In this document: piece by piece, positions 1 to 64,000 of the stretch
How the letters are laid out: every line of letters begins with the position of its first letter
Position numbering within the stretch: position 1 is the stretch's first letter
Source of the DNA: an uncultured Verrucomicrobiae bacterium
GTDB lineage: Bacteria > Verrucomicrobiota > Verrucomicrobiia > Limisphaerales > UBA1096
Reading direction: 5' to 3'
DNA: 64,000 nucleotides
Assembly: GCA_937770485.1 (NCBI GenBank)
Contig: CALJHX010000023.1
Coordinates: 25,772-89,771 of the forward strand
The notes under the pieces: model-generated
Database searches by the model: none
Told to the model about the DNA's origin: nothing
The model's input: the letters and a program-made list of their open reading frames with translations, nothing else
Made by a program: the position numbers and the translations under genes

Positions 1-1509
1 AACTGCCGGATGTGCCTCGTGCATGTCGCCATGCCGGGACGCCCCGGCCCCGATGGCAAGCCCCCGATGAGCGAGGACGGCACGCCGAAAGTTTTCCCGA
101 TGCAACTCCCGTACGAGCCGGGGACACCGCGCGGTGTCATTGGTTGCGCGACTGGCATCATTCCCGGAATGGAGATTTACGCCAGCAGCCCGGAAACCCG
201 CGAGATGCGCGAGGCGGTGCTCGAGTCGCTGCTGATCAACCACCCACTCGATTGCCCGATTTGCGATCAAGCCGGCGAGTGCAAGCTGCAAGAGTACTCG
301 GTCGAGCACGGCCAACCGGAGAGCCGGTTCGCCGAGGTGAAGGTGCACAAGCCCAAGGCGGTCGACCTTGGTCCGCGGATCACGCTCGACGCCGAGCGCT
401 GCGTGATGTGTACCCGTTGTATCCGCTTCACTGCCGACGTCGCCGGCGACGACGCTTTGGGCATCGTGAACCGAGGCAGCTACAACGCGATCTCGACTTA
501 TCCCGGCCAGCCGTTCGACAACAACTACACGCTCAACACCGTCGACATCTGCCCGGTCGGCGCGTTGACGTCGGACGACTTCCGCTTCCAGATGCGCGTC
601 TGGTTCCTCAAGGAAACCAAGAGCCTCTGCACCGGCTGCGGCACCGGTTGCAACACGGTCATCGGCTCGCGGGAAAACAAGATGTACCGCTACGAGCCGC
701 GCCGAAATGACGCAGTGAACAGCGACTGGATGTGCGACGCCGGTCGGCTCGACTACAAGTGGATCGGCCGTGACGATCGCTTGGCCAAGTTGCGCGGGCC
801 AAATGGCGACATCACTTGGCCAAGCGCGTTGCAGGAGATTTCTGGGCACTTGGCCAAGGCCGCCGAAGGCTCAGTCGCGGTCGTCACTTCGGCGAGGCAA
901 ACCAACGAGGAGCTTTTTCTGCTGAACAAATTGGCAAAGCGCTATAAGGCGTTGACCGACTCCGTACCGCGCAAGGGTGAGGCCGATCATTTACTCGTCG
1001 CTGGGGATCGGAACCCGAACACCACCGGCGCGCAGTTGACCGGGATCACGACTAAGCGCGTCGGCTCGAGGCTTGCTGCCATCGCCAAGGGGATCGCTTC
1101 CGGCAAAATCACGACGCTGATCGTTTTCGGTGAGGACGTCACGCAGCACGGCATTGACGCCACGCTGCTTGGCAAGTTGAAGCTGCTGATCGTCAGCGAC
1201 ATCCTGCCAAACGCCACGACAAAAAAGGCCGACTATCTGCTGCCGGGTTGCGCGCATGCTGAGAAACGCGGGACGTTCACCAACGTGAAAGGGCGCGTGC
1301 AGAAATTCACAAAAGCCTTCGAGCCACCCGGCGACGCGATGCCGGAGTGGGAAGTGCTGCACGAGCTTGTGCACGCCGTCACTGGCCTCGACGGTTTCAA
1401 CAGCATCGAGGGTTTGTTCAACCAAATGGCCGGCGAGGTGAAGGCGTTCAAGGCCGCTGGCCTGACGTGGGCCGGTCTCGGAGACAAGGGCACGGACGTG
1501 AAATTGTAA
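1..1509 (+). CDS. nuoG: NADH-quinone oxidoreductase subunit G, 5'-truncated by the window edge
   Basis: The frame of ORF 10..1509 is open to the window edge. It has the Fe-S motif NHPLDCPICDQAGECKLQEY and CxxCxxC clusters, followed by a molybdopterin-oxidoreductase-like region. It is directly followed by nuoH-N. Confidence 0.9.
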   Translation, partial: NCRMCLVHVAMPGRPGPDGKPPMSEDGTPKVFPMQLPYEPGTPRGVIGCATGIIPGMEIYASSPETREMREAVLESLLINHPLDCPICDQAGECKLQEYSVEHGQPESRFAEVKVHKPKAVDLGPRITLDAERCVMCTRCIRFTADVAGDDALGIVNRGSYNAISTYPGQPFDNNYTLNTVDICPVGALTSDDFRFQMRVWFLKETKSLCTGCGTGCNTVIGSRENKMYRYEPRRNDAVNSDWMCDAGRLDYKWIGRDDRLAKLRGPNGDITWPSALQEISGHLAKAAEGSVAVVTSARQTNEELFLLNKLAKRYKALTDSVPRKGEADHLLVAGDRNPNTTGAQLTGITTKRVGSRLAAIAKGIASGKITTLIVFGEDVTQHGIDATLLGKLKLLIVSDILPNATTKKADYLLPGCAHAEKRGTFTNVKGRVQKFTKAFEPPGDAMPEWEVLHELVHAVTGLDGFNSIEGLFNQMAGEVKAFKAAGLTWAGLGDKGTDVKL

Positions 1510-2639
1510 TGCCCGCCTCGATCACAGGACTATTCGCCGAGCCGTGGGCGCTGACGCTGCTTAAGGTTATCGCGGTGTTCGTCGTGGTGATGCCGATGGT
1601 CGCCTACTCGGTCGTCGCCGAACGCCGCATCTCAGCGTGGATTCAGGATCGTGTCGGCCCAAACCGCGTCGGCATTCCGTTCACGAATATCAAACTGCTT
1701 GGGCTTGGCCAACCGCTGGCCGACGGGCTGAAGGCGTTGGTGAAGGAGGACTTCACTCCGGGTCATGTGCGGAAAGTATTTTTTTGGATGGCTCCAGCGG
1801 TGGCGATGGTGCCGTCGTTCGTGGTGCTTGCCGTAGTGCCGTTTGGCTCGATGCTCGGGTCACAGAAGATGGTCATCGCCGATCTTAATGTTGGTATCCT
1901 GTTTACCTTCGGCATCGTGTCGCTGGGAGTGTATGGCGTCGTGCTGGCCGGCTATGCTTCGAACTCGAAGTATTCGTTCCTCGGCGGCATCCGCTCGACG
2001 GCGCAAATGATTTCCTACGAGATCGCGATGGGTCTGGCGGTCGTGCCGGTGTTCATGCTTGCGGCCGATCCTACTTGGCAAAAAGGATTATCCCAATCTT
2101 GGTCTGTTTATTTGGAGGGTGCAGGTTTGTTGAATCTTTCGAGTGTGATCGCTTATCAAAGTGACACCCTGTTCCATTGGCTGATGTTTAAGCAGCCGAT
2201 TGCGTTTGCAATTTTCCTGATCGCGATTTTTGCGGAGACCAACCGTTTGCCATTCGACTTGCCGGAGTCAGAAACGGAGTTGGTGGCCGGTTACCACACC
2301 GAGTATAGCTCCATGAGCTTTGCGCTGTTTTTTATGGGGGAATACGCGGCGATGATCGCCGGCTCAGCGCTAATGGTTGTGTTGTTTTGCGGCGGCTGGA
2401 CGCTGCCGCTTGGCGACTTTTTCAACACACCGGCCCAGTCGCTTGGCCAAGGGTTGGTGCACATTGGCGTGTTCATCGCGAAGATCGCGATGTTTCTTGT
2501 TTTGATGATTTGGATTCGCTGGATGTTGCCTCGATTCCGCTACGATCAACTGATGAACATAGGTTGGAAACGGTTCCTGCCTTTGAGCTTGGCCAACATT
2601 ATCTTTACGGCAATCGTGCTCTGGGTGCTGCACAGTTAA
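1509..2639 (+). CDS. nuoH: NADH-quinone oxidoreductase subunit H
   Basis: The ATG at 1509 overlaps the nuoG stop (TAATG). This is a polytopic membrane protein with the ND1/NuoH signature PESETELVAGYHTEYSSMSFALFFMGEY. The upstream part of ORF 1347..2639 overlaps nuoG and is rejected. Confidence 0.9.
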   Translation: MPASITGLFAEPWALTLLKVIAVFVVVMPMVAYSVVAERRISAWIQDRVGPNRVGIPFTNIKLLGLGQPLADGLKALVKEDFTPGHVRKVFFWMAPAVAMVPSFVVLAVVPFGSMLGSQKMVIADLNVGILFTFGIVSLGVYGVVLAGYASNSKYSFLGGIRSTAQMISYEIAMGLAVVPVFMLAADPTWQKGLSQSWSVYLEGAGLLNLSSVIAYQSDTLFHWLMFKQPIAFAIFLIAIFAETNRLPFDLPESETELVAGYHTEYSSMSFALFFMGEYAAMIAGSALMVVLFCGGWTLPLGDFFNTPAQSLGQGLVHIGVFIAKIAMFLVLMIWIRWMLPRFRYDQLMNIGWKRFLPLSLANIIFTAIVLWVLHS

Positions 2640-2649
2640 GGACGAAAAA

Positions 2650-3264
2650 ATGAAAGTGGATCGCACAGAGTTGACCTGGTGGGAGCGGCTGTATTTGCCG
2701 ACGCTGCTCAACGGTTTCAAGGTCACGCTACGCCATTTCTTCTCATGGAAACGCTCGGAGGTGTACGGGGACAAGCAGAAGAATTACAGCGCCAAGACCA
2801 CGATGCAGTATCCGGAGGAAAAATGGGATGTACCCACCGGTTACCGCGGTGCGCCGTATTTGGTGAAGGATGTGGACGATAAAACCAAGTGCGTTTCATG
2901 CCAGTTGTGTGAGTTTGTCTGTCCTCCCAGAGCCATTCGTATCACGCCACCGGGAGACAGCGGCGTGGTCGATCGCGAGGGCGCGGAGAAGATGCCGAAG
3001 GAATTCGAGATCGATATGCTCCGTTGCATCTATTGTGGCTTCTGTCAGGAAGTTTGCCCGGAGGAGGCGATTTATCTGTTGGAGGATTACGCCATCACCG
3101 GTGAGAGTCGTGAGGAGCTGGTTTACGATATGAAAAAGTTGCTGGCGCTGGGCGGCGCGGACAAGCGCGCCTACGATCACCACGTGCAGGATGGGGTGGG
3201 TGATGGCATCAAAAAATGGGAAACCAAAACGCGTGAAGCAGGGGAGCAACCGAAGTTTCACTGA
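2650..3264 (+). CDS. nuoI: NADH-quinone oxidoreductase subunit I (2x[4Fe-4S] ferredoxin)
   Basis: It has two CxxCxxCxxxCP motifs (CVSCQLCEFVCP and CIYCGFCQEVCP) and sits in the expected operon position. Confidence 0.92.
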   Translation: MKVDRTELTWWERLYLPTLLNGFKVTLRHFFSWKRSEVYGDKQKNYSAKTTMQYPEEKWDVPTGYRGAPYLVKDVDDKTKCVSCQLCEFVCPPRAIRITPPGDSGVVDREGAEKMPKEFEIDMLRCIYCGFCQEVCPEEAIYLLEDYAITGESREELVYDMKKLLALGGADKRAYDHHVQDGVGDGIKKWETKTREAGEQPKFH

Positions 3265-3279
3265 TGAGCTGATTTAGGC

Positions 3280-3828
3280 ATGGAAGGAACGCTGTTCAAT
3301 ATTTTCGCCGGCCTGACTTTGCTGAGTGCGTTTATGGTAGTGGCGAATCCTTTCAGCCGCAACCCGGTGACGAGTGCGATGTTCCTCGTGACGGCGATGA
3401 TCTCGATCTCCGGGCTGTTCGTGCTACTCGGCGCGTACTTTCTCGCGGCGGTGCAGATCCTCGTTTACGCAGGGGCCGTGATGGTGTTGTTCCTGTTCGT
3501 GATTATGCTGCTGGATCTCCGGGAGGCGGCGCGCCGCAAACTGAATCTCATAAGCCTCGCGATGGGCATCATGGCTGTTGGCGCGCTGTTTTCGGTTTAC
3601 AAAAGCTCGCTAGAATCGACGTATGGTGAAGCACCTCAGCAGCACGAAGCGGCGAATACTGGCCAAGCGGAGGCCAAGCCGGCCAAGGTAGTCGGCAGCA
3701 CGCGGGCGCTTGGCCAAGCGCTGTTCAGTAAGGACAACGGATTCATCCTGCCGTTCGAGATCGTCTCCATTCTGCTGCTGGTGGCGATGGTTGGCGTGAT
3801 TTTATTGAGCAGAAAGGAGCCACGATGA
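3280..3828 (+). CDS. nuoJ: NADH-quinone oxidoreductase subunit J
   Basis: A 182-aa hydrophobic protein at the ND6/NuoJ position between nuoI and nuoK. Its stop overlaps the nuoK start. Confidence 0.85.
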
Positions 3829-4133
3829 TGGAACCGACCTTGAGCCAATACCTGCTGGTGAGCGGGGCGCTGTTTGCGATCGGCTTGCTGGGCGTGATCG
3901 TGCGGCGCAACCTGCTAATCATCTACATGTCGCTCGAGTTGATGCTCAACGCGGCGAACGTGGCGCTCGTGGCGATGTCGCGTTTCAATGGGAATCTCGA
4001 CGGGCAGGTGATGGTGTTCTTTATCATCACCGTCGCCGCGGCGGAGGTGTCCGTTGGATTGGCCTTGATCGTCGCGCTGTATCGGAAACGCCAAACCGCC
4101 GACGTGGAAGACTTGGCCACGATGAAACTCTAA
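3825..4133 (+). CDS. nuoK: NADH-quinone oxidoreductase subunit K
   Basis: A 102-aa protein with three TM segments and the ND4L-like sequence [16 protein letters not shown]...[13 protein letters not shown]. There is a 4-nt overlap with nuoJ. Confidence 0.9.
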
Positions 4134-4136
4134 ACG

Positions 4137-5903
4137 ATGAATACCGCTGCATGGTTGGTTTTGTTACTCCCGCTCCTCTCGGCGGTACTCATCGGCTTGG
4201 GCGTGTTCCGCTCGCGCATTGCCAGCGCGGCGATCTCCGTCGGCGCGGTCGTCGGTTCATTTTTGCTGACGTTGCTGCTGATTGCAGCCGGCGGTGAACT
4301 GCATCCGAGCGTTATTTGGCTCGCGATCGAGGGCCTTCAAATCGACATCGGATTGCAAATCGACAATCTCAGCAAGTTGATGCTGTGTGTCGTTACCGGT
4401 GTCGGCGGACTGATCCATTTTTTCTCGCTGGGCTACATGAAGGAGGATCGGGATTTCTCTCGCTACTTTGCCTTCCTCAGCATCTTCATTTTCTCGATGC
4501 TCGGTATTGTGTTGGCCGACAACTTCGTGATGATGTTCATCTTCTGGGAATTGGTCGGTGTCTCGAGTTATTTGTTGATCGGATTTTGGTTCGAAAAACC
4601 CAGCGCGGCCGATGCCGCCAAAAAAGCCTTCCTCACCAACCGCATCGGCGATTTCGGTTTTCTGATCGGCATCCTGATGGTCTGGGCCGCGATGGGTTCT
4701 ATCAATTTCGACGCCATTGAGAGCAAACTCGCGACTGGAACTGCGGCCATCACCGGCTTGGCCGGGTTCCTGATTTTCTGCGGAGCTATGGGAAAGTCCG
4801 CCCAAGCCCCTCTGCACGTATGGCTGCCGGACGCGATGGAGGGCCCGACGCCGGTCAGCGCGCTCATCCACGCTGCGACGATGGTGGCTGCCGGTGTGTA
4901 CATGCTTTGCCGCCTGTTTTTCCTGATCGAAGGCACCTGGGCGATGGAGGCGATCGCGTGGATTGGCGGCCTGACCTCTCTGCTGGCCGCGCTGATGGCG
5001 GTGCAGCAGGACGACATCAAGCGCATCCTGGCCTACTCGACACTCTCACAGCTGGGCTACATGGTGATGGCGGTTGGGCTGGGTTCGCCCGACGCGGCGA
5101 TGTTTCACCTGACAACGCACGCCTCCTTCAAGGCGCTGTTGTTCCTCGGGGCTGGCTCGGTAATCGTGGCGCTTCATCACGAGCAGGACATCTGGAAGAT
5201 GGGCGGCCTGCGAGAGCGGATGCCGAAGACGTACTGGACGTTTTTGATCGGCACGATGGCGCTCTGTGGCGTCCCACTCTTCAGCGGTTTTTTCAGCAAA
5301 GAAGCTATCCTCGACGTCGCGCTGGAGAATAATATTCTGCTGTTTTTGGTCGCCGTGTTTGTTGCCTTGCTGACGACATTTTACATGACGCGACTGTTTG
5401 TTGTGGCGTTCATGGGCGAGCCGCGTTCGAGCCACGCTGAGCATGCCAAGGAGAGTCCCGCCGTGATGACCGTTCCACTGATGGTGCTCGCGGTGCCATC
5501 GGTAATCGCCGGCTACTTCAACGCGCACGCGCTGAATCCACTAGTGCTGGCCGCCTCGCTCGTTGTGTTGGTGTTCGGCACGCTCGTGGCCAACACCCTG
5601 TACAGCGGAGCCAAGGAAGATCCGCTCCCGGCAAGGTTAGGCCGCTTGGCCAAGGCGCTGCGCAACCGGTTTTGGTTTGATGAAGTTTACCAGTGGTTCA
5701 TCGACAAAGTGCAGGAGAACTTGGCCAAGCTGGCGGACGCCATCGACCGCTGGGTGATCGCCGGGTTGCTGGTGCGCGGCGCACACGGCACGACTGAGTT
5801 GGCCGGTCGGGTGTTGCGCCTGGCCCAGACCGGGAACCTACAAACATACGCTTTTTGGTTTGCGGCCGGCATGGCTGTGCTTTTGTTTTTTACGTTGAAT
5901 TGA
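4137..5903 (+). CDS. nuoL: NADH-quinone oxidoreductase subunit L
   Basis: A 588-aa antiporter-like subunit with ND5/NuoL motifs (FWELVGVSSYLLIGFW, KSAQAPLHVWLPDAMEGPTPVSALIHAATMV). Confidence 0.9.
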   Translation: MNTAAWLVLLLPLLSAVLIGLGVFRSRIASAAISVGAVVGSFLLTLLLIAAGGELHPSVIWLAIEGLQIDIGLQIDNLSKLMLCVVTGVGGLIHFFSLGYMKEDRDFSRYFAFLSIFIFSMLGIVLADNFVMMFIFWELVGVSSYLLIGFWFEKPSAADAAKKAFLTNRIGDFGFLIGILMVWAAMGSINFDAIESKLATGTAAITGLAGFLIFCGAMGKSAQAPLHVWLPDAMEGPTPVSALIHAATMVAAGVYMLCRLFFLIEGTWAMEAIAWIGGLTSLLAALMAVQQDDIKRILAYSTLSQLGYMVMAVGLGSPDAAMFHLTTHASFKALLFLGAGSVIVALHHEQDIWKMGGLRERMPKTYWTFLIGTMALCGVPLFSGFFSKEAILDVALENNILLFLVAVFVALLTTFYMTRLFVVAFMGEPRSSHAEHAKESPAVMTVPLMVLAVPSVIAGYFNAHALNPLVLAASLVVLVFGTLVANTLYSGAKEDPLPARLGRLAKALRNRFWFDEVYQWFIDKVQENLAKLADAIDRWVIAGLLVRGAHGTTELAGRVLRLAQTGNLQTYAFWFAAGMAVLLFFTLN

Positions 5904-7437: not shown

Positions 7438-8895
7438 ATGGACGGTCAACTGCAATTTATACAGCTCGAGGTGATGGTGGTGGTGCTGGGGCTGCTCGTC
7501 CTGCTCGCTGACTTGTTCCTGTCGGAGTCGGCACGGCGGTCGCTTGGCTACATAGCTGCAGGGTCGCTTGGCTTCGTGTTCCTGCTGAGCTTTCGCGGTG
7601 GCTACACCGACTTGGCAGAGGGCGAGGCGTTCGGCGAGATTTATCGACTCGACGGCTTGGCGCTGTTTTTCAAGCGGTTCTTCCTATTGACGGCAATTTT
7701 CGTGCTGGTATTTACGGTAGACTTCGCCTCGCGGTTGAGGAGCGGCGTGTCGGAGTATCTCGCGTTCATCCTGTTTGCGTTGTCGGGGATGATGTTCGCC
7801 TCCTCAGCCAACGACTTCAGTTTGTTGTTCGTCGCAATTGAGTTGATCACGGTGACGTTTTACATCCTCGTCAGCTTTCAGCGGCACCGGATGCACTCAC
7901 TCGAGGCAGGTGTGAAATATCTCATCCTCGGCGCGGTGTCGTCGGCGTTTTTGGTTTACGGCATAGCGCTCGTGTTCGGCGAGGCCGGCAGCCTCAAGTT
8001 CGATGCGATCCGCGACGCGCACGCCGGTTTGCTCGGGAGCAAGGTGTTTTTGTTTGGCATGCTGTTCGTGTTTGCTGGGCTGGCGTTCAAGATTTCAGCG
8101 TTCCCGTTTCAGGTTTGGGCGCCGGATGTGTATCAGGGCGCGCCTACGCCCACGACGACGTTTCTCGCGGTCGGCTCCAAGGCGGCCGGATTCGTGCTGC
8201 TGATCCGCTTGTTTGGCAGCGTTGTCCCGGAACTCACCGCCCAATGGGCAGGGATGCTGATGGTCGTCGCCGCTCTGACGATTTTGTACGGTAATCTTTG
8301 CGCCCTTCCGCAGCGTAACCTCAAGCGGCTGCTGGCCTACTCCGGCATCGCCAACGCCGGTTATATGCTGATGGGCATCGTGGTCCAGTCGGACGAAGGG
8401 ACGGCGGCAATTTTGTATTACCTCGCCGGTTATCTGTTCACGCTCGTGGCGGCATTCATGATTATCAATCTGCTGACCCGAGACGGGGAAGGGGAGGATA
8501 TTTCTTGTCTTGCGGGACTGGGTAAACGCTCGCCATTCCTCGCCTTGACGCTGACGCTGGCAGTCGTGTCGCTGGCCGGGATACCGCCGCTGGCCGGGTT
8601 CTTCGGCAAATTTCTGCTGGTGAAAGCGATCGCCGTCAAGGCGTTCGGTGACGCCGGATACTTCGCGCTGCTGGCCGTGGCGGTGTTCGGCGTCGTTGTC
8701 TCGATCTACTACTACTTCGGCATCATTCGGACCATTTACTGGTCAAAAGACACGACCGACAACTCGCCGGTGGCGGTCGCTTGGCCAACACGGGTTGCGC
8801 TTGGCCTCTGCGTCGCCGCAATCCTCTACCTCGGCATTCTGCCCAACAAGCCCATCAACTGGGCCGACGCTGCCGCCAAGATCGAGACCAAGTAA
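7438..8895 (+). CDS. nuoN: NADH-quinone oxidoreductase subunit N
   Basis: A 485-aa ND2-family membrane protein (FPFQVWAPDVYQGAPTPTTTFLAVGSKAAGF). It is the last gene of the operon. Confidence 0.88.
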   Translation: MDGQLQFIQLEVMVVVLGLLVLLADLFLSESARRSLGYIAAGSLGFVFLLSFRGGYTDLAEGEAFGEIYRLDGLALFFKRFFLLTAIFVLVFTVDFASRLRSGVSEYLAFILFALSGMMFASSANDFSLLFVAIELITVTFYILVSFQRHRMHSLEAGVKYLILGAVSSAFLVYGIALVFGEAGSLKFDAIRDAHAGLLGSKVFLFGMLFVFAGLAFKISAFPFQVWAPDVYQGAPTPTTTFLAVGSKAAGFVLLIRLFGSVVPELTAQWAGMLMVVAALTILYGNLCALPQRNLKRLLAYSGIANAGYMLMGIVVQSDEGTAAILYYLAGYLFTLVAAFMIINLLTRDGEGEDISCLAGLGKRSPFLALTLTLAVVSLAGIPPLAGFFGKFLLVKAIAVKAFGDAGYFALLAVAVFGVVVSIYYYFGIIRTIYWSKDTTDNSPVAVAWPTRVALGLCVAAILYLGILPNKPINWADAAAKIETK

Positions 8896-8896
8896 A

Positions 8897-9997
8897 TCAG
8901 CGGCGGGCGAAGAGTTTGCCGGGTAACTGCTTGGCCAAGCGCTTCATTTCCAGCCCGAGCAGAGCCACCGAAACCGTCGGCGTCGGCAGGCCGCTGTTGA
9001 TGATGATCGTGTCGATCGTTTGCTCGGTGGTTTCGAGTAAATCTAACACGGCTTGTTCCTGTTCTGTGAGATTAGCGAGCGGAATCGACTCGGAGTTATC
9101 CGCTTGGACAAGCGCTTGGTTGGGGAACAGATGCTCGAACTCGGCGAGGATGTCCTCTGCGTTTTCGCACAGCGCGGCGCCGTTGCGGATGAGATTGTGG
9201 CAGCCGCGGCTCTGTGGCGAGTCGATCCGCCCCGGCACGGCGAACACCTGCCGGTTGTTGTCGGCGGCCATGTTGGCTGTGATGAGCGCCCCGCTTTTTT
9301 GGTTCGCCTCGACAACGACCGTGCCGAGCGTCATCCCGGCGACGATGCGGTTGCGGATAGGGAAGCTCTGCTTGTCGCCCTTCCGATTGAACGGGAACTG
9401 GGTGATGACGGCGCCGTTGTCGGAGATGCGTTCGTACAACTCCGCGTTTTCCGCCGGGTAAACAATGTTGATGCCAGTGCCGAGTACGGCGATCGTTCGG
9501 CCCTTGGCCGAGAGAGCGCCCTGGTGCGAGGCGGAGTCGATGCCGCGTGCGCCGCCGCTGACCACTGTGATACCGTGACCGGCGAGTTGGTAGGCAAGCT
9601 TGCGGGCGGCGTCCTGCCCGTAATGCGTGGTACGCCGCGCACCGACCATCGCGATGCTGTTTTTGTCCTCCGGCAGCAGGCGGCCCTTCACGTAAAGGAC
9701 AATCGGCGGGTCGTAAATCTCGCGGAGTAACTCAGGGTACTCGTCGTCAGTTTGAAAAACGAGCCGCGCGCCAAAGTCCTCGGCGCGCTTCAACTCCCGG
9801 GCCAAGTCGGTGGTGGATTGCCAGTGTACGATCGTGCCGGCCAAGTCGTCGCCGATGCCCTTGACGCGCACCAGCGCCGAGCGGTTTGCCTGCAGTACAT
9901 TGGCGGCGTCGCCGAAGCACTCGAGCAATTGCCGTACCCGAACCGGCCCGATCCCCTCGAGCAGATTCAAAACCACCAATGCCTCACGCGCGTCCAC
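8897..9997 (-). CDS. dprA: DNA-processing protein DprA (Smf)
   Basis: A 366-aa protein with the DprA Rossmann-like core (VVSGGARGIDSASHQGAL ... PGRIDSPQSRGCHNLIRNGA) and a C-terminal winged-helix-like tail. Confidence 0.88.
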   Translation of the reverse strand: MDAREALVVLNLLEGIGPVRVRQLLECFGDAANVLQANRSALVRVKGIGDDLAGTIVHWQSTTDLARELKRAEDFGARLVFQTDDEYPELLREIYDPPIVLYVKGRLLPEDKNSIAMVGARRTTHYGQDAARKLAYQLAGHGITVVSGGARGIDSASHQGALSAKGRTIAVLGTGINIVYPAENAELYERISDNGAVITQFPFNRKGDKQSFPIRNRIVAGMTLGTVVVEANQKSGALITANMAADNNRQVFAVPGRIDSPQSRGCHNLIRNGAALCENAEDILAEFEHLFPNQALVQADNSESIPLANLTEQEQAVLDLLETTEQTIDTIIINSGLPTPTVSVALLGLEMKRLAKQLPGKLFARR

Positions 9998-10036
9998 GGG
10001 CGGACGTTAGCGAGGGAGGATTACTGACGCCAGCGG

Positions 10037-10068
10037 GAAAGAAAAAAGGCGGCCGTTGGGCCGCCTTT
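10037..10068 (-). terminator. Rho-independent terminator downstream of the small membrane-protein gene
   Basis: A perfect 10-bp stem AAAGGCGGCC/GGCCGCCTTT (10045-10054 and 10059-10068) with a 4-nt loop. On the minus strand it is followed by a T-run. Confidence 0.65.
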
Positions 10069-10087
10069 CAATTTCAGATGAAAAAAA

Positions 10088-52835: not shown

Positions 52836-54205
52836 AGTATCCCTTCAGCACTCGTCGTGATTTTTTACAGAAGGCCTCGCTCGGCTTCGGCAGCTTGGCC
52901 CTGGCCGGCTTGTACGGGGCGCCGATAATTCCGCATTACCGCCCGCCCGCGAAGAACGTGATCTTCCTGTTCATGGAAGGCGGGGTTTCCCAAGTCGACT
53001 CCTTTGACTACAAGCCGATGCTGGCTAAGCATCACGGTGAGGATCCGCGAAAGGCCATCGGCAAGATCGAGGCCACCCAGTTCGAGAGCGTAGGAAAGGT
53101 GATGAAGTCACCCTGGGAGTTCAAACAACGCGGAAAATGCGGGGCCTGGATCAGCGAACTGTTCCCCCAGGTGGCCGAACTGGCCGACGAGCTGGCGATC
53201 ATTCGATCGATGACCGCCAATTTCCCCGAGCACACCAGTGCCTGTTACTACATGCACAGCGGATTGGGCTTGCAGGGCCGACCGAGCATGGGTGCGTGGG
53301 CGACCTACGGGTTGGGCAGCGAGAACAAAAACCTTCCCGGCTTCGTCGTGCTCAACGGCGGCCAGATTCCCTCCGGCGGCCTGGATAATTTTTCCAACGG
53401 CTTTCTGCCTGCGACCTACCGCGGCAACCTGTTGAACGTCATTGGCACCCCGCTCGCCAATGTGAAACCGAACGAGAAATCCGACCGGGCCCAGAAGATC
53501 AAGCGACGCCTGGTGCAGCAACTGAACCGGAGTACGGCCGGGGGCATCGACGCCTTGGAATCGGCGATTGCCAACCACGAGCTGGCGGCCAGGATGCAAC
53601 TGGCCATCCCCGAAGTCATGTCTCTGGACGGCGAAACCGAAGCCACCAAAAAACTTTATGGCTTCGATGCCAAATATAAGCACACGCAAACCTATGCGAG
53701 GGAGTGCCTGATCGCCCGGCGATTAATCGAGCGGGGCGTACGCTTCGTCGAGTTGACCATTCCCATGGTAAATGGATACCAGCGCTGGGATGCTCACAAC
53801 GACCTGGTGACGAATCACAGCACAAACGCACGCGCGGTGGACCAGCCGATCGCCGGCCTGATCCGCGATTTGAAGTCACGCGGCTTGCTGGATGAAACCT
53901 TGGTCGTCTGGACCGGGGAATTCGGACGTACCCCCTTCGCCCAAGGGGGCAAAGGTCGGGATCACAACGAATACGGATTCAGCCTCTGGATGGCCGGAGG
54001 CGGGATCAAGCCCGGCGTGACCTATGGTGCAACCGACGACTGGGGTTACAAGGCGGTGGATAACCCATTGCAGATACACGATCTCCACGCCACTATGCTT
54101 CACCTGCTCGGGATCGACCACGAGGAGTTGACCTACCGCTTCAGCGGCCGTGACATTCGACTGACCGATGTACACGGGAAGATCATCGAGGATATCCTGT
54201 TGTGA
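52832..54205 (+). CDS. DUF1501 domain protein (Tat signal), intact
   Basis: RRDFLQKASLGFGSLALAGL, 457 aa. The start overlaps the stop of the upstream pseudogene (ATGA). Confidence 0.9.
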   Translation: MKYPFSTRRDFLQKASLGFGSLALAGLYGAPIIPHYRPPAKNVIFLFMEGGVSQVDSFDYKPMLAKHHGEDPRKAIGKIEATQFESVGKVMKSPWEFKQRGKCGAWISELFPQVAELADELAIIRSMTANFPEHTSACYYMHSGLGLQGRPSMGAWATYGLGSENKNLPGFVVLNGGQIPSGGLDNFSNGFLPATYRGNLLNVIGTPLANVKPNEKSDRAQKIKRRLVQQLNRSTAGGIDALESAIANHELAARMQLAIPEVMSLDGETEATKKLYGFDAKYKHTQTYARECLIARRLIERGVRFVELTIPMVNGYQRWDAHNDLVTNHSTNARAVDQPIAGLIRDLKSRGLLDETLVVWTGEFGRTPFAQGGKGRDHNEYGFSLWMAGGGIKPGVTYGATDDWGYKAVDNPLQIHDLHATMLHLLGIDHEELTYRFSGRDIRLTDVHGKIIEDILL

Positions 54206-54645
54206 AGATGATCGGGGGCTCAAGTCTTAGGTTCCATTTCTTGTTGATTACGTACTTCGTAATTCCTTGCATGGGGTCTTTCTTCGGCGGTTCGTTTGGT
54301 TTGCTTTCATTAACGCTCCTAGCCTTGAGCGACTTTGCCAAATGGTCAAGATTTACATTGAGGTTCACGAACGCCGCCAGCGCATACATCCTCACATCCA
54401 GTGCTTCGCTGCGTGCCCGTGTCTTCTGCCACACCCGTGACTTCACTCCGTTTCGCACCCGAGCTACTGCCTTCTCAGCAGTCAATTTTTCAAAATACTC
54501 TTCGTCGTAGCCTTGCCCAATCGGGAAGTGACAGTAGCCAGCACCGCTGTCCTCGATCTTCAGGCACGAGTAGATTAACTCCTTGGCCGAGTCAACGCCA
54601 AGGCTGAACAGCGGTCTGTTAAGTGTGATTACATCATACTTTTTG
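54183..54645 (-). mobile_element. 3'-terminal remnant of a phage terminase large subunit (GpA family) gene
   Basis: The minus-strand frame is closed upstream by a TAA near 54646. It reads ...RPLFSLGVDSAKELIYSCLKIEDSGAGYCHFPIGQGYDEEYFEKLTAEKAVARVRNGVKSRVWQKTRARSEALDVRMYALAAF..., matching the C-terminal region of lambda-like GpA terminases. No N-terminal ATPase part is present. Confidence 0.6.
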
Positions 54646-54775
54646 AGGTTGTTTTAGGATTTAAAGGAATTTTATGGGAAACTATACGATAAAAGTAACC
54701 CCTTTTAAAATGATGGTTAAGTTGTTTTTTAAGACTGTTTTAAGGAGAATAAAATCAGTTCCGAATGATGCAAAT

Positions 54776-57055
54776 TCAGTTTTGTGTGATGGCCTCGTCG
54801 AGATTGAGGATGGTGTTGGCCACCAGCGCGTAGGCGGCCAGTTGGGCGGCGGGCAGCCTGGGGCTGCGCGGCTTCTCGCCAACGGATAAGAGCTTCTTTG
54901 CTGCATCTGGTTTTTTTCGGAAATCTTTCAAGTAAAAGAAAAAATCTTTCATTAACAAATCCAACTCCTCCTTGCGTGGTGCGCGGCTAGTCACGCGGCG
55001 AAACGCCTCCGCCACGCGTTGGCGCGGCCGCTGTCCCTTGGCTAGCATCATGCGCTCGGCGAGGAACCGTGCTGCCTCCACGAAGGTCTTGTTATTCATC
55101 ATCGTGAGCGACTGCAACGGTGTGGTGGTGAGGTCGTTGCGTACGATGCAAATTTCCCGCGCGGCGGCGTTGAAGGTCATCATCGTGGGGGGCGGTACCG
55201 TGCGACGCCAGTAGGTATATATGCTGCGCCGGTAAAGTTTGTCACCCTTGTCCTGCTTGTAGCTTGCGTTCGAAATGCTCTTCCAGATTCCCGGTGGCAT
55301 GTATGGCTTCACCGATGGCCCACCAGTTTTTCCACTTAGCAAGTCGCTTGTGAACAGCGCTGAGTCGCGAATCGCATACGGCGTGAGACGCTTGCGTGGG
55401 CCATGGGAGAGCAGTCGGTTTTCGGGGTCGCGCCGCTGCAGTTTGCGCGAAGCCGTCGAGTGCTGCCGGTAGGTGGCGCTGGTGACAATGAGCCGGTGCA
55501 TCGACTTCAGGTTCCAGTCGCGCCGCACGAACTCGGTAGCCAGCCAGTCGAGCAGCGCCGGGTTGCTAGGCAGTTCGCCCTGCACGCCGAAGTTTCCGCT
55601 TGTTTTTACGAGGCCAAGCCCAAAGTAACGCTGCCACAGGCGGTTCACTGTCACGCGCGCGGTGAGCGGATGCGCCGGATTGACCAGCCACCTTGCGAGG
55701 CCAAGGCGGTTGCGAGGCCATTGATCGTTCCACGAGCCGAGCACCGGTGGCGTGGCCGGATGCAGTTGCTCTGATTTGTCCGGTTGGTCATACAGGCCGC
55801 GCTCGAGTCGATACGTGTCGCGTGGCTTGGGCAACTCGTGCAGCACCATCACCGTGTTGGTTGCGCCCGGCTGCGGACGTGGCACGGAGGTTTGCACCAC
55901 CTTGATTTTCATCGGTGCGGGCACCACGAACTTGGCCTCCTCCGCCGACAAAACCGGCCAGCGCTTTGGCACCTCGATGAACGGCGGGCTGTTGCCATTG
56001 TTCGGCCCAAGGCCGGCCTCATCGATGTTGTTGAAGAAAGCAAAAAGCCGGTAGAAGTCCTTTTGTGTGACCGGGTCGAACTTGTGATCGTGGCAGCGCG
56101 AGCAGGTGAGCGTAAGCCCAAGAAACATCGTGCCCATCGTCTCTACGCGGTCGGCCACGTATTCAACGATCCACTCGTCCGGAATCGATCCGCCCTCCGA
56201 GTTGATGCGGTGGTTGCGGTTGAAGCCGGTGGCCACCTGCGTGAAAAAGTTTCTGTCTGGAATCAAGTCGCCCGCCATCTGCTCAGTGATGAACCGGTCG
56301 AACGGCATGTTATCGTTGAGTGCCCGGATCAGCCAATCGCGCCACACCCACATGTAGCGCAGCCGGTCGTTTTGGTAGCCGTCGGTGTCGGCGTAGCGCG
56401 ATGCCTCCATCCAGCCCAGCGCCATGTGTTCGCCGTAACGCGGCGAGTCGAGCAGGCGATCCACCGCCTTCGCGTAAGCCCCGGGTGAATGGTCTTCGAG
56501 GAAGGCGTCAAGTTCCGCGAGCGTGGGCGGAAGGCCGGTTAGGTCGAGAGTCGCGCGACGGAGCAGGGTGGCCTTGCCGGCTTCCGGCGACGGAGCGAGT
56601 CCTTCGCGCTCAAGCCGCGCCAGCACGAAGTGGTCGATGCCGTTGCGCGACCAGTCGGCGTCCCTCACCTTTGCCAAGCGCGGCCGCTTGGGCGGCACAA
56701 AGGCCCAGTGCCGGTCGTCGCTTGGCCAAGCGGCCCCGGCCCGGAGCCACTCGACCAGTTTGGCACGATCCGCATCGCGCAGCGGTCGGTTGGAATCCGA
56801 CGGCGGCATGCGTTCATCCGGATCGTTGATTGTGAGCCGGCGCAGTATTTCGCCGTCGGCAATCACGCCTGCCTCGAGCGCCGCTGCGCGGTCGTGCAGG
56901 CGCAGCTTCGCCTTGCGGGCATTGGCGTCGGGGCCGTGGCAATGGTAGCAGGCATCCGACAACACCGGTCTAATGTCGCGGGCAAAGTCTAACTGCGCCC
57001 CCGATGCCATGCTGCAAAGGAAAACTGTCGCCAAAAGGGGGATGATACGCACCAT
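54776..57055 (-). CDS. PSCyt1-DUF1549-DUF1553 (PSD1-type) protein, intact
   Basis: It has a signal peptide, the planctomycete cytochrome c motif CYHCHGPDANARKAKLRL, DUF1549 (RRATLDLTGLPPT, CSRCHDHKFDP) and DUF1553 (TVNRLWQRYFGLGLVKTSGNFG). It is 759 aa. Confidence 0.88.
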   Translation of the reverse strand: MVRIIPLLATVFLCSMASGAQLDFARDIRPVLSDACYHCHGPDANARKAKLRLHDRAAALEAGVIADGEILRRLTINDPDERMPPSDSNRPLRDADRAKLVEWLRAGAAWPSDDRHWAFVPPKRPRLAKVRDADWSRNGIDHFVLARLEREGLAPSPEAGKATLLRRATLDLTGLPPTLAELDAFLEDHSPGAYAKAVDRLLDSPRYGEHMALGWMEASRYADTDGYQNDRLRYMWVWRDWLIRALNDNMPFDRFITEQMAGDLIPDRNFFTQVATGFNRNHRINSEGGSIPDEWIVEYVADRVETMGTMFLGLTLTCSRCHDHKFDPVTQKDFYRLFAFFNNIDEAGLGPNNGNSPPFIEVPKRWPVLSAEEAKFVVPAPMKIKVVQTSVPRPQPGATNTVMVLHELPKPRDTYRLERGLYDQPDKSEQLHPATPPVLGSWNDQWPRNRLGLARWLVNPAHPLTARVTVNRLWQRYFGLGLVKTSGNFGVQGELPSNPALLDWLATEFVRRDWNLKSMHRLIVTSATYRQHSTASRKLQRRDPENRLLSHGPRKRLTPYAIRDSALFTSDLLSGKTGGPSVKPYMPPGIWKSISNASYKQDKGDKLYRRSIYTYWRRTVPPPTMMTFNAAAREICIVRNDLTTTPLQSLTMMNNKTFVEAARFLAERMMLAKGQRPRQRVAEAFRRVTSRAPRKEELDLLMKDFFFYLKDFRKKPDAAKKLLSVGEKPRSPRLPAAQLAAYALVANTILNLDEAITQN

Positions 57056-57873: not shown

Positions 57874-59777
57874 AGCGGTTTCTGTTTTCGTTATTGTTCT
57901 CGATTGGGGGGACGGTTTCCGCTGCGGAGCAACCTAATATCCTCTGGATCACGGCGGAGGATATGAGCGCTACGCTAGGTTGTTATGGCGATAAGTTCGC
58001 CTTTACTTTAAATATAGACCGCTTGGCCAAGGAGAGTGTGAGATACACGCGGGCGTTTGCGAGTGCGCCGGTTTGTTCACCCTCGCGGTCGTGCCTCATT
58101 ACGGGCTGTTACCCGACTTCGCTTTCCACGCAGCAAATGCGTTCGGGCTTTGCGATTCCCAAGGGCATGCGCGGGTTTCCGGCGCGGTTGCGGTCGTGCG
58201 GGTATTACACGAGCAACAACGTTAAGACAGATTACAATACAGCCAACTACGCGGATATTATCAAGGATTCGTGGGCTGAAAGCAGCGCGACCGCGCACTG
58301 GCGCAAGCGGCCTGACAAGGCGCAGCCGTTTTTCAGTATATTTAACCTAATGACTTCGCACCAAAGCCGCACGATGGTGTGGCCTTACGAGCGATTTCAA
58401 ACCGAGGTACAGAGCAAGCTGTCGCCCAGTGAAATCCATGACCCGGCCAAGGTGTCGTTGCCGGCGTATTATCCAGACACGCCGCTCATCCGGCGAGAGG
58501 TCGCGCGCTTTTACGATTGCGTTACCGCGATGGACAAGGAGGTTGGCGCCATTCTGCAACAGCTTGAGGACGACGGCCTCGCCGGGAATACAATCGTCTT
58601 TTTTTACAGCGACCACGGCAGCGGCATGCCCCGTCACAAACGTGCCCTGCTTGACAGCGGCATGCATGTGCCGCTGATGATTCGATTCCCCAAAAAGTGG
58701 CAGCACCTGGCTCCCGGCGAGCCCGGCACCACCACCGCCCGTCTCGTAAGCTTTGTTGATTATGCCCCAACCATCTTCAGCCTCACTGACACGCCTATCC
58801 CCGCACACATGCAGGGCAAACCATTCCTCGGCGACAAAGCCGCGGAAGCTCGACGTTATGTTTATGGGCATCGTGATCGCGTCGATGAAGTACGCGATCT
58901 CGCACGTTCCGTGCGAGATCGCCGTTATCTGTACATCCGCAACTACATGCCGCACCTCGGCTATAACCAGCCCACCGCCTGGCCCGATAATGGCGAAATT
59001 CGCCATGACTTTTATCGCTTGGCCAAGCCCGAAACGATGAGCGCTCCTCAATGGCACTTCGCCAGTCCCACTCGAGCAGTCGAGGAACTCTATGACTGCC
59101 AAGTCGACCCGCAGAACCTGAATAACTTAACCAAGTCGGGGAAACACCAGGAGATTTTGAGCCGGCTGCGTGCCGAGCATGTACGCCACATCACGGTAAC
59201 GGCCGACCTTGGCTTTTTGCCAGAGAGCGAAGCGTGGGAACTGTTCTCCAAGCAAACCGGCTGGGAACTTGGCCAAGCGGGCAGGGTGCCGTTGGCCGAC
59301 ATTCACCAAGCCGCTGCCCAAGTTGGTATCGCCAGCGAGAGGGTGTTTTTGAAAAACCTGGATTCGGATAATCCGACCATTCGTTACTGGGGCGCGATCG
59401 GGTTGGCTGTGAGGCCGGTAATCTCCGGTTTGGCCAAGCGCAAATTACGACGAAAGATCACTGATCCATCACTAGCCGCGCGGATTGAGATCGCCAACGC
59501 CCTAGCGACTCACGGCGACATTCCGAACGCACTGCCGGCATTGATTGACTCAATGCAACACGAAAATCTCATCGTTGTGACCCACGCCGCCCGGATCATC
59601 GAGTTGCTCGGGAAAAAGGCGAACAGTGCTAGGTATGCAATTGAAGAAGCCCTCAAACGCGCAGACAGAATCCGCCCGCCTGACACACCGGCGACTATCG
59701 TCCTGCCCGGCGACAAGGATTTAGCCATGTTTGTTTCCTTTTCCTGTCGTGCTTTTTTGAACAAACTAGACGAGTAA
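57870..59777 (+). CDS. Sulfatase (S1 family) with a C-terminal helical-repeat extension
   Basis: The ATG at 57870 overlaps the upstream stop (ATGA). It has a signal peptide and the signature APVCSPSRSCLITGCYP, over 636 aa. Confidence 0.88.
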   Translation: MKRFLFSLLFSIGGTVSAAEQPNILWITAEDMSATLGCYGDKFAFTLNIDRLAKESVRYTRAFASAPVCSPSRSCLITGCYPTSLSTQQMRSGFAIPKGMRGFPARLRSCGYYTSNNVKTDYNTANYADIIKDSWAESSATAHWRKRPDKAQPFFSIFNLMTSHQSRTMVWPYERFQTEVQSKLSPSEIHDPAKVSLPAYYPDTPLIRREVARFYDCVTAMDKEVGAILQQLEDDGLAGNTIVFFYSDHGSGMPRHKRALLDSGMHVPLMIRFPKKWQHLAPGEPGTTTARLVSFVDYAPTIFSLTDTPIPAHMQGKPFLGDKAAEARRYVYGHRDRVDEVRDLARSVRDRRYLYIRNYMPHLGYNQPTAWPDNGEIRHDFYRLAKPETMSAPQWHFASPTRAVEELYDCQVDPQNLNNLTKSGKHQEILSRLRAEHVRHITVTADLGFLPESEAWELFSKQTGWELGQAGRVPLADIHQAAAQVGIASERVFLKNLDSDNPTIRYWGAIGLAVRPVISGLAKRKLRRKITDPSLAARIEIANALATHGDIPNALPALIDSMQHENLIVVTHAARIIELLGKKANSARYAIEEALKRADRIRPPDTPATIVLPGDKDLAMFVSFSCRAFLNKLDE

Positions 59778-61308: not shown

Positions 61309-61309
61309 A

Positions 61310-62595: not shown

Positions 62596-62952
62596 TCATT
62601 CGCCCCTGTAAATACAACGGGCGGTGCAGGTTTCGGCCACTTCCACAGCGGTTAACAGCGGCAAGCTTGGCTTCAATTGCTCCCAAATCCACACGGCGAT
62701 ATTTTCACTCGTCGGGTTTTCGAGGCCATCAACGTCGTTGAGATAACGGTGATCGAGTTGCTCCCAGATTGGTTTGAACGCCGCCGTGATGTCGGCGTAA
62801 TCGAGCACCCAACCCAGTTTTGAGTCGCAATCGCCCTCGACGACGATCTCCGCCGTAAAGCTGTGCCCGTGCAGTCGCCGGCATTTGTGAGCCTCCGGCA
62901 GATGCGGGAGCAGGTGGGCGGCTTCAAACTGAAATGTTTTTCTGAGTTCCAT
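62596..62952 (-). CDS. queD: 6-carboxy-5,6,7,8-tetrahydropterin synthase
   Basis: The start is the ATG at 62952 ([16 protein letters not shown]...CRRLHGHSF), the PTPS/QueD signature. It is 118 aa. Confidence 0.88.
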
Positions 62953-62959
62953 GATTCGG

Positions 62960-64000
62960 TTATGCGGTTTCGAGATTTGCCCAGCGGATGAGCTCGCCCA
63001 GTGGCGGTCGTCCGTCGTGCCGCCAGGCCAGCGGCGGTCGCTGCATCTGGCCAAGCGGACAAATCCTCGGCACACCCCACCGGGCCAACGGCAGTGCCAA
63101 ATCCCGCATCCGCGCCTCGCTCGCGGCCAAGCCGACGGTGGATACCGACTCGCGAATCGGCTCCAGAACGTGCAGCGCCTCGTCGATGTGCTCAATCGGC
63201 TTGACGAAAATAAAACGGTTCAGTGGCGAGCTCTGGAATTGCCTTTCATCCTCGTGCACCACCGTCCAGTCGGTCGAGTCCTCGCTCTCCCACAGCATCG
63301 CACCGGCGTTGTTGGCCGCGCGGATCTTGTAAAAGCGACGGGCCGTCGAAATCGCCGCCGCCTCTCTCGTCGAGACCGGCCCGCGCGGCATGGTCTCGTT
63401 TCGCGCCTCGAGTTCTACGGCGAGCATTTCGGCGAAGCGCGCGGGGTTGAGGCTGCCGTTTTCCTCCACGTAAATCACGTGCGGCGATAGGCAGCCGTGC
63501 TGGTTCCACGCGACGATATCGTCGGCGGCATGCGATATGACCGTCTGCGTACCCATCACCTCGTTGGCCTGTTTTTCCACGTAGCCAAAACTGACTCGGT
63601 GACCGTAGCCGACCAAGGTCTTGGCCAAGGGCAGTCGCTGACGGATCGACTCCACCGTTTTGTCGCCGCCATTCACCGTTACGCAATAGGCCTCGGCGAA
63701 CAATGCCGATTCGAGCGACTCGTTGCCGCCATCCCACTCCGCGATCTCAAGGGTCGCCGCCATGCCCGGTTCGACGAAGTGCAGCGAGTGGCCAAACAGC
63801 CGCGTCAACAGTGACTTGCCGGAAGCGCACTTGACGAATTGCGCCGATCGCAGCAGCAACCCAAACGCGATCGACTGAAACACCGGCACTGGCAAATTAC
63901 CCGGCGCGATGTGCGCGATCAGTGGCGGGCTGTTCACCATCGAGTACGTTCGGTTCGGCTGGCTGGCGAACGACTGCAGTCGCGTCGGGTCGCCGAACTC
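62960..64000 (-). CDS. LuxC-like acyl-CoA reductase family protein, 5' end outside the window
   Basis: The frame stays open upstream of the ATG at 63940 to the window edge. [34 protein letters not shown] resembles the LuxC family NAD(P)-binding/selector region. Confidence 0.6.

Follow-up and report, generated by a model that had tools for sequence, protein, structure and literature searches.

What makes one short palindromic word recur 42 times in 64 kb of bacterial DNA? The stretch in question (hereafter the window) comprises 64,000 nucleotides of contig CALJHX010000023.1, positions 25,772 to 89,771, from an uncultured Verrucomicrobiae bacterium, and the word is the octamer TTGGCCAA, most often found as the decamer CTTGGCCAAG. 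An earlier model-made inspection of the same letters (the sequence-only reading) had noticed the excess and likened it to HIP1, the highly iterated palindrome of cyanobacteria. We find that the word is a DNA-level 'highly iterated palindrome', restricted to one clade of uncultured marine Verrucomicrobiota and thus a further instance, in another phylum, of a rare type of genome feature; we give a probability of about 0.5 to the view that it is kept genome-wide in that clade, by a mechanism that we infer, through sequence-specific biased fixation.

The window has a G+C content of 57.8%. Dinucleotide shuffles of it yield 1.34 copies of TTGGCCAA on average and never more than 4, against the 42 observed; CTTGGCCAAG occurs 30 times (0.10 expected), GCTTGGCCAAGC 12 times and the perfect 16-mer GCGCTTGGCCAAGCGC twice (3706-3721 and 15973-15988), all of which reproduces the counts and coordinates of the sequence-only reading. 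Markov models predict 0.9 (order 0), 1.6 (order 1), 3.4 (order 2) and 4.6 (order 3) copies of the 8-mer, and at most 0.45 of the 10-mer through order 3. At orders 4-5 the 8-mer expectation climbs to 13-23, because these models, like the maximal-order one, are trained on the nested subwords themselves and so absorb the signal. The maximal-order model, in which each nested word is predicted from its own subwords, was uninformative as a null, and Markov orders 0-3 and a synonymous-codon shuffle were used instead; the enrichment remains under both. At 656 copies per Mb the observed-to-expected ratio of copies (O/E) is 27-48 (order 1, order 0) or 9 (order 3), and TTGGCCAA stands with CTTGGCCA and TGGCCAAG as the most deviant 8-mers of the window. 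The half-sites and the permuted palindrome AAGCGCTT, earlier called frequent, are indeed so, the latter with 8 copies against 1.6-2.7 expected. Scans of the window for tRNA genes and Rfam families gave no matches.

As had been claimed, the excess is a property of the DNA rather than of any one peptide. Our gene model (55 genes, 87.7% of the window) is consistent with public gene calls for the same species and with Pfam. It places 23 of the 42 copies in the phase TTG-GCC-AAx (Leu-Ala-Lys/Asn), 11 in xTT-GGC-CAA (x-Gly-Gln), 3 in xxT-TGG-CCA-Axx (Trp-Pro) and 5 between genes. The three frames first quoted were correctly read (781, Leu-Ala-Lys, and 816, Trp-Pro-Ser, in nuoG; 3710, Leu-Gly-Gln, in nuoJ), and the four spacer sites then listed are all among our five. 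Two of the five, at 32571 and 58023, are possibly inside the 5′ ends of longer open reading frames (ORFs), which puts 3-5 copies between genes. Non-coding DNA holds 12% of the copies, the same as its share of the sequence. When synonymous codons are shuffled within genes (1000 shuffles), the 8-mer appears 6.5 ± 2.3 times (maximum 16) against 37 coding copies, and the 10-mer 1.6 times against 26. The window encodes 52 L-A-[K/N] tripeptides, 23 of them spelled TTG-GCC-AAx where codon usage predicts 5.2.

How far does the word extend among bacteria? The NuoM protein of the window matches metagenome contigs only, and its nearest named relatives are metagenome-assembled genomes (MAGs) labelled Limisphaerales, Verrucomicrobiales or Verrucomicrobiota. 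Among species-representative genomes, a scan found collinear loci in the marine MAGs ETNP1_MAG_26 (90% DNA identity to the window), Arabian9_MAG_18 (84%), CB6_Bottom.37 (88%) and UBA6775 (74-82%), and the species of the window also occurs on a 1.35-Mb contig, FRAM_RAS_F4_07_1819_3-c000000000594. Wherever the NuoM of an orthologous locus is 80% identical or more, the locus has 7-12 copies per 10 kb and TTGGCCAA is its top palindromic octamer; some 60 Verrucomicrobiota loci with a NuoM at most 64% identical carry 0-1 copies per 10 kb. A metagenome scan with the 16-mer returned at least 120 loci, of which 68 among the matches listed are motif-rich. These 68 marine loci (561 kb, nearly non-redundant, G+C 0.51-0.63) hold the word at ~850 copies per Mb and are the clade sample used below. 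The trait is thus restricted to one clade of uncultured marine Verrucomicrobiota.

Two of these distant loci show a faint excess of TTGGCCAA, without strong preference for the CTTGGCCAAG flanks: Verrucomicrobiia 2_bin.11 (L028; NuoM 43% identical), with 4 copies against 0.19 expected, and L015 (NuoM 61%), with 3 against 0.13. They may carry a weaker or independent version of the trait.

The clade sample gives the anatomy of the word. Symmetrised flanks of the window copies hold information only at positions -1 (C 83%), -2 (G 64%), -3 (C 56%) and -4 (C/G 82%), and 956 independent half-sites give the same profile (C 83-84%, G 62-64%, C 56-58%, S 80-82%); beyond -4 both sets hold zero information. 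The unit is accordingly sCGC-TTGGCCAA-GCGs, a graded consensus around the core CTTGGCCAAG. With the seeding 16-mers masked, the motif-rich loci still contain 478 8-mers (14-40 expected; O/E 33 at order 1, 12 at order 3), 343 10-mers (1.8-4 expected) and 177 12-mers (0.2-0.5 expected). Enrichment rises from ~10-30-fold for the 8-mer through 70-300-fold for the 10-mer to more than 200-fold for the 12-mer, from which it follows that the enriched unit is at least a 10-12-mer. Exact copies number 478 against 663 with one deviation, where composition predicts about 1:20, which puts the word far from mutational equilibrium; the deviations cluster at positions 1 and 8, the central GGCC being least variable. 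Once exact copies are masked, TGGCCA has an O/E of 1.45 (order 2) and GGCC of 0.9-1.3.

Among palindromic hexamers and octamers TTGGCCAA alone is strongly over-represented; several other palindromes are avoided in the same genome. GGGCCC occurs 34 times in the 561 kb against 163-277 expected and twice in the window against 16-28; CAGCTG and GGCGCC are likewise avoided, and CATATG and CCTAGG have zero copies in the window. Such avoidance is the usual signature of restriction-modification and contrasts with the over-representation of TGGCCA.

Gaps between copies are nearly exponential, with slight over-dispersion (coefficient of variation, CV, 1.12) at scales below 15 kb. An exception is a spacing of exactly 12 bp, seen in 13 pairs of copies of the form (TTGGCCAAGCGC)×2. 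Eight of these doublets are independent of the seed (L222:1053, L235:5200, L238:1387, L239:1076, L284:5738, L312:2394, L327:2049 and L336:9227), the five further ones are seeded cases, and the window has none. The doublets probably arise by in-frame slippage between the GCGC flanks, which form direct as well as inverted repeats. This arrangement explains much of the permuted palindrome: among 100 copies of AAGCGCTT in the loci, GGCC adjoins at least one side in 81 and both sides in 33.

In the same 561 kb the word is somewhat denser outside genes (12.3 against 8.1 per 10 kb). Convergent spacers have the highest density, 20.7 per 10 kb, a figure from 12 sites only. Some 85% of copies lie inside genes, where the three phases are used in the proportion 234:155:16. 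Its imprint on the proteome is large. The tripeptides LAK, LGQ and WPS have O/E values of 4.1, 4.8 and 5.8 in the clade against 1.2, 0.5 and 0.4 in motif-less Limisphaerales-like loci; the word has raised them four- to six-fold and so reshaped the proteome, beyond the ~2-fold tripeptide inflation reported for uptake sequences (Findlay & Redfield, PMC2817400).

By what route do copies arise and persist? Orthologues lacking a copy have the same length and differ by substitution; copies are neither inserted nor copied from each other but arise in place by point substitution. Alignment of orthologues, proposed earlier as a check for synonymous changes, shows both kinds: 24 presence/absence differences change the peptide and 15 are synonymous. 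Between species, conservation is about twice that of phase-matched control 8-mers: the 90%-identical relative keeps 10/10 window copies against 5.2 for controls (P = 0.0014), and other relatives keep 9/16 against 4.9, 4/6 against 2.4 and 4/16 against 2.6 (the four comparisons, with P = 0.0014, 0.028, 0.18 and 0.25, are not independent). The last of these, 77% identical, has equally many copies of its own elsewhere. Copies therefore turn over between species while density stays at ~0.7-0.9 per kb.

Within the species (12 contigs, ~99% identical) 4 of 23 copies are polymorphic, against 12.2% of control words, and at the six polymorphic motif positions gains about equal losses, a pattern that suggests raised gain more than protection from loss. 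With loss near the neutral rate, equilibrium would need a gain per proto-site an order of magnitude above neutral, and so high a gain points to bias in fixation; both steps rest on few events.

On the reading that we prefer, duplex DNA would be read by a dimeric protein, a picture suggested by the symmetric information profile and its decay over ~16 bp. Uptake, recombination or retention in repair would favour alleles bearing the word, and sequence-specific biased fixation would hold the word far above its mutational equilibrium. This would be a molecular drive like that established for the DNA uptake sequence (DUS) of Neisseria and the uptake signal sequence (USS) of Pasteurellaceae and proposed for methylated HIP1. 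The central TGGCCA is possibly cytosine-methylated: the excess of the variant TTGGCTAA (below) and two C-to-T losses in the lineage of the window, at 6760 and 11861, weakly hint that its second C is methylated.

Several observations weigh against biased fixation. The window and the 561 kb yielded no recognising protein, no methyltransferase and, the ubiquitous dprA aside, no competence apparatus; the dprA gene in the window, earlier put forward as a pointer to uptake, is near-universal and for that reason no evidence for it. Word density is not lower in genes of atypical codon usage (410 genes), being about flat with a modest rise with G+C, so that there is no general sign of atypical genes without the word. 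The density of single-nucleotide polymorphisms, looked at for a role of copies as recombination hotspots, is not raised beside them, a comparison confounded by a variable motif-free stretch. Excess conservation between species is equally expected from direct selection on each site, and the argument from gain and loss within the species has six polymorphic positions only. DUS and USS are asymmetric, and 35-65% of uptake-sequence copies lie in ORFs (PMC2817400), against a palindrome here with ~85% of copies in genes. Nor is host-level density in a phage readily accounted for by a drive through transformation, except if that phage is temperate.

That phage is a 13.7-kb contig, L151 (IMGVR_UViG_3300032087_002358), with 8 dispersed copies of TTGGCCAA against 0.2 expected, set in host-like flanks. 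It encodes a terminase large subunit (3800-5416), a DnaB-like helicase (8213-9646) and a PDDEXK nuclease (11988-12371), and carries the word at host density; we regard it as a candidate phage of the clade. Because it carries these dispersed copies, a role of the word as a restriction target is unlikely. Three pattern scans of IMG/VR gave no other motif-rich contig among the matches listed. Viral matches to the 14-mer and 16-mer were mostly single chance occurrences and were set aside, as were the matches to a two-copy pattern, mainly local tandem repeats. Two unrelated viral contigs, L209 and L210, belong to the latter as coding-repeat artefacts, with local tandem repeats containing CTTGGCCAAG (in L210 five copies with a 48-bp period; L209 also has nine copies of CTGGCCAG).

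In a narrower form of the preferred reading, CTTGGCCAAG might serve in the recognition of self-DNA, as a symmetric and probably methylated tag for uptake or recombination that a dimeric receptor reads and that at least one phage of the clade also carries. We regard this as tentative and on balance doubtful; if true, the PVC superphylum would have its first system of this sort, parallel to HIP1 but independent of it.

Comparison with known systems places the word closest to the highly iterated palindromes (HIPs) of cyanobacteria, namely HIP1 (GCGATCGC) and 'alternate HIPs' such as GGGATCCC and CAGGCCTG (Elhai 2015, PMC4390886; Xu, Lawrence & Durand 2018, PMC5861425). Shared features are a GC-rich palindromic octamer at 656 (window) or ~850 (loci) copies per Mb, within the 300-2700 of HIPs; an O/E in the tens (27-48 in the window), above the HIP criterion of ~15; use of all frames and spacers independently of any one peptide; palindromic extension to at least 10 nt, with one-off variants biased to the outer positions; and lineage-specific spread by substitution. 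Conservation of sites above control words, also described for HIPs, is seen here as a roughly two-fold excess between species (in the four non-independent comparisons) and as no excess within the species. Quasi-periodic spacing at 10-90 kb, a further mark of HIPs, belongs to longer scales than the loci cover (at most 15 kb, against 64 kb for the window), and the short-range spacing is slightly over-dispersed. The HIP1-like behaviour first proposed for the word, in abundance, phases, extensions and the lack of any single peptide or repeat family behind it, is thus upheld. Unlike HIPs, it has no internal GATC and no cognate methyltransferase was found for it in the window and the 561 kb; its information reaches ~16 bp, and it forms 12-bp tandem doublets. 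GCGATCGC itself occurs at most 3 times per locus. As the phylum and the word both differ and no methyltransferase is known, the word is not HIP1 itself. HIP1 boosts transformation, an effect that depends on methylation (bioRxiv 10.1101/2024.09.10.611283), and a role as uptake signal has been suggested for it (bioRxiv 10.64898/2026.06.24.733823), so that the HIP and uptake analogies may converge.

With DUS (Neisseriaceae) and USS (Pasteurellaceae) the word shares a density of ~1 copy per kb and a graded consensus around a strict core (PMC2817400, PMC2397512, PMC3630211), use of all frames with a frame bias, inflated tripeptides, clade specificity, positions common to relatives and some stretches without the word. 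Beyond its symmetry it differs in being only ~1.5-fold denser outside genes, where USS and DUS are strongly biased to intergenic DNA and terminators. Repetitive extragenic palindromes (REP/BIME) and miniature inverted-repeat transposable elements (MITE) are also palindromic and of high copy number; they are 20-40 or more nt long, extragenic and copied, whereas the word here is 8-16 nt long, mostly intragenic and born by substitution.

Few lineages are known to carry short words in such excess (HIP1 in cyanobacteria, DUS in Neisseriaceae and USS in Pasteurellaceae), and the origin of these words is debated. The sequence-only reading knew of no described equivalent, and our literature searches, of incomplete coverage, likewise found no published description of this word or of an iterated palindrome in Verrucomicrobia; searches for the word itself returned primers and unrelated sequences only. 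The clade thus offers a counterpart, with a different and longer symmetric word, in a phylum with none known before. It is also a second natural experiment: the recognition protein can be sought by gene-by-gene comparison of sister lineages that have the word with those that lack it, and existing long-read metagenomes holding the organism could be re-read for base modification. As a practical barcode, the 16-mer scan gave motif-rich loci for 68 of the 120 matches listed and flagged the candidate phage, which could aid binning and virus-host linking.

Which other explanations survive? The strongest is that every copy is a selected functional site, bound by a chromosome-organising or regulatory protein or methylated, and kept by purifying selection with no drive; we think it possible but unlikely. 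It would account for the roughly two-fold excess conservation between species, for the symmetric, extended consensus expected of a protein site and for the lone over-represented palindrome amid avoided ones, and it has a precedent in the case argued for HIP1 by Xu, Lawrence and Durand (PMC5861425). It sits poorly with polymorphism within the species like that of control words (4/23 against 12.2%), with only 4/16 sites common to a 77%-identical relative that has as many copies of its own, with slightly over-dispersed, irregular spacing below 15 kb (CV 1.12) and with copies falling indifferently in any gene. Known nucleoid-site systems (parS, matS, NBS and SBS) have far fewer sites per genome than the ~2,000-4,000 extrapolated here for an assumed genome of 3-5 Mb.

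Improbable, in our judgement, is a drive by methylation-linked very-short-patch (VSP) repair, as the sequence-only reading had suggested. A cytosine-5 methyltransferase acting on TGGCCA or GGCC and a Vsr-like nuclease would together convert T:G to C:G and ratchet near-sites into sites. The core does hold both targets, as E. coli CCWGG, also an over-represented palindrome, holds a potential cytosine-methylation target for Dcm/Vsr. In addition, TTGGCcAA became TTGGCtAA in 2 of 5 losses in the lineage of the window, and TTGGCTAA is the most over-represented inner variant, which would fit a hotspot of methyl-C deamination. Such a drive, however, predicts depletion of the T-variants, and in the loci they are enriched instead: TTGGCTAA/TTAGCCAA have an O/E of 3.5-3.8, TTGGTCAA/TTGACCAA of 1.2-1.9 and TGGCTA with TGGTCA of 1.1-1.5. 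Because these deamination variants are not depleted, VSP repair is unsupported. It should also act on the 6-mer, but the bare cores are barely enriched after masking (TGGCCA 1.45-fold, GGCC not at all) and enrichment climbs with length, orders of magnitude larger than for CCWGG and beyond any 4-6-bp target. In E. coli the effect of VSP repair on CCWGG is small by comparison.

The enzymes that VSP repair calls for did not appear either. Pfam searches of 49 window ORFs, which span all stretches outside the annotated runs nuoG-N to pgk/esterase, detected neither a DNA methyltransferase nor a Vsr nor a restriction enzyme; the one methyltransferase among them is an RsmB/F-like rRNA enzyme. Regular-expression screens of the 561 kb of clade loci for m5C motif IV and the N4/N6 xPPY motif gave false positives only. 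The search proposed earlier for an m5C or m4C methyltransferase with a neighbouring Vsr was thus negative in window and clade DNA, with no methyltransferase of the PCQxFS type in ~0.6 Mb.

Very improbable is a function as a DNA or RNA hairpin (cruciform, terminator or mRNA stability element). As DNA the 16-mer can form a hairpin whose 6-bp stem encloses a GGCC loop (-5.5 kcal/mol), and density peaks between convergent genes. Most copies, though, are 10-mers that do not fold (0 kcal/mol), the 12-mer at -1.1 kcal/mol does no better than shuffles, and copies are ~85% intragenic in all phases, with no T-run; we reject the hairpin for the bulk of copies. Last, the idea that the word is a by-product of codon usage or a favoured peptide, or consists of copies of a single REP/MITE-like mobile repeat, is refuted: Leu-Ala-Lys is the commonest reading (23/37 coding copies), but three phases and spacers are in use, codon shuffles fall far short (6.5 against 37, and 5.2 against 23 for L-A-[KN] as TTG-GCC-AAx), the tripeptides are inflated in this clade only, flanks are random past 4 nt, and orthologues differ by substitution with no insertions. 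A single repeated peptide or a mobile repeat family had been named earlier as what would overturn the observation.

The copies in the window are as follows (8-mer coordinates unless stated; strand '.', none being assigned).

781-788: 10-mer CTTGGCCAAG in nuoG, TTG-GCC-AAG, Leu-Ala-Lys; CTGGCCAA in 1 of 6 strains; missing in L008 and L024
816-823: 10-mer in nuoG, xxT-TGG-CCA-Axx, Trp-Pro-Ser; kept in L008
850-857: 10-mer in nuoG, Leu-Ala-Lys
1705-1712: copy in nuoH, xTT-GGC-CAA, Leu-Gly-Gln; polymorphic, TTGGGCAA in 2 strains
2443-2450: 10-mer in nuoH, Leu-Gly-Gln; window strain only, six 99%-identical strains having TCCCCCAA
2589-2596: copy in nuoH, Leu-Ala-Asn; synonymous CTG in relatives
3706-3721: perfect 16-mer GCGCTTGGCCAAGCGC in nuoJ, Leu-Gly-Gln; kept in L007, L023 and L008
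5646-5653: 10-mer in nuoL, Leu-Ala-Lys
5721-5728: 10-mer in nuoL, Leu-Ala-Lys; kept in 5 of 5 compared genomes
8781-8788: copy at the 3′ end of nuoN, Trp-Pro-Thr
8931-8938: 12-mer at the 3′ end of dprA (minus-strand gene), Leu-Ala-Lys
12194-12201: copy in the SBP_bac_5 gene, Leu-Ala-Lys; kept in all genomes compared
13025-13032: 10-mer in the SBP_bac_5 gene; kept in all genomes compared
14416-14423: copy in tpiA, Leu-Ala-Asn
15434-15441: copy in pgk, Val-Gly-Gln
15973-15988: perfect 16-mer in the esterase/SGL gene, a gene missing from L008 and L024
18137-18144: 10-mer in carA
21645-21652: copy in the L25/TL5 ribosomal protein gene
24456-24463: 10-mer in pheS
24681-24688: 10-mer, intergenic, pheS/rplT spacer
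25423-25430: 10-mer, intergenic, divergent spacer between rpmI and the gene at 25464+
27088-27095: 10-mer in the small ORF 26730-27104
28215-28222: 10-mer in the RsmB/F-like rRNA methyltransferase gene
28834-28841: copy in the GreA-domain gene
31728-31735: 10-mer in the fructosamine-kinase gene
32571-32578: 10-mer in a spacer or the extreme 5′ end of the LMW phosphatase gene
34008-34015: copy, intergenic, between convergent genes (ends 33993 and 34021)
35914-35921: 10-mer in the metallophosphoesterase gene
37011-37018: copy in scpA
37947-37954: 10-mer in scpA
38258-38265: copy in the GSDH/cytochrome c gene
40538-40545: 10-mer in the GSDH/cytochrome c gene
40653-40660: 10-mer in the GSDH/cytochrome c gene, Leu-Gly-Gln phase
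42763-42770: 10-mer in a sulfatase gene
43211-43218: 10-mer in a sulfatase gene
46179-46186: 10-mer in the DUF1501 gene; TTGCCCAA in four other strains
46187-56721: 10.5 kb without any copy, spanning low-GC degenerate leucine-rich repeats (LRR), the PSCyt2/PSD1 gene and a DUF1501 gene
56722-56729: 10-mer in the PSCyt1/PSCyt2/PSD1 gene, Trp-Pro-Ser phase
58023-58030: 10-mer in a spacer or the 5′ part of a sulfatase gene; strains differ in gene calls
59019-59026: 10-mer in the sulfatase/HEAT gene
59269-59276: 10-mer in the sulfatase/HEAT gene
59430-59437: copy in the sulfatase/HEAT gene
63621-63628: 10-mer in the LuxC-like acyl-CoA reductase gene

In the motif-free stretch 46187-56721 one would expect 6.9 copies if it had the mean density of the window (Poisson probability of none ~0.001). 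The gap was considered as a possible sign of foreign DNA, against which stands the lack of any fall in density with atypical codon usage across 410 genes.

Around the copy at 2443, a patch at 2318-2489 has 11 differences in ~170 bp between strains otherwise 99% identical, and in the window strain only, 4 changes within 5 nt create the copy; the patch looks like an imported recombination tract. The esterase/SGL-domain gene (15832-17646) has no counterpart in L008 and L024, whose orthologous loci run from pgk nearly straight into carA. The GreA-domain ORF (28674-31127) encodes 817 amino acids and has its GreA/GreB N- and C-terminal domains in the last 170 residues only, the N-terminal extension of ~640 residues being without a Pfam match.

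Within the motif-free stretch, a 69-bp (23-codon) tandem repeat, the second repeat family of the window, forms an array at 47001-47480 (within 46800-47700) of ~7 copies with 74% match and a shared core GTCACCAGCATTGG. It encodes BspA-type leucine-rich repeats (LRR_5), split over short ORFs in a region of 48-52% G+C, where other strains call a 390-amino-acid ORF with no Pfam match. The neighbouring PSCyt2/PSD1 gene is broken into three ORFs in the window (49575-50204, 50215-50631 and 51201-52835); it is a single ORF of 1073 amino acids in three other strains of the species and split in two more. The split reflects either frameshifts or pseudogenisation, or else assembly errors.

Finally, an AT-rich islet at 10013-10475 does not align with strains L001 and L003. 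It encodes a hydrophobic protein of 96 amino acids on the minus strand (10088-10378), for which a gene of 90 amino acids is called in some strains, and just downstream of its stop lies a GC-rich hairpin followed by TTT (~10048-10070).

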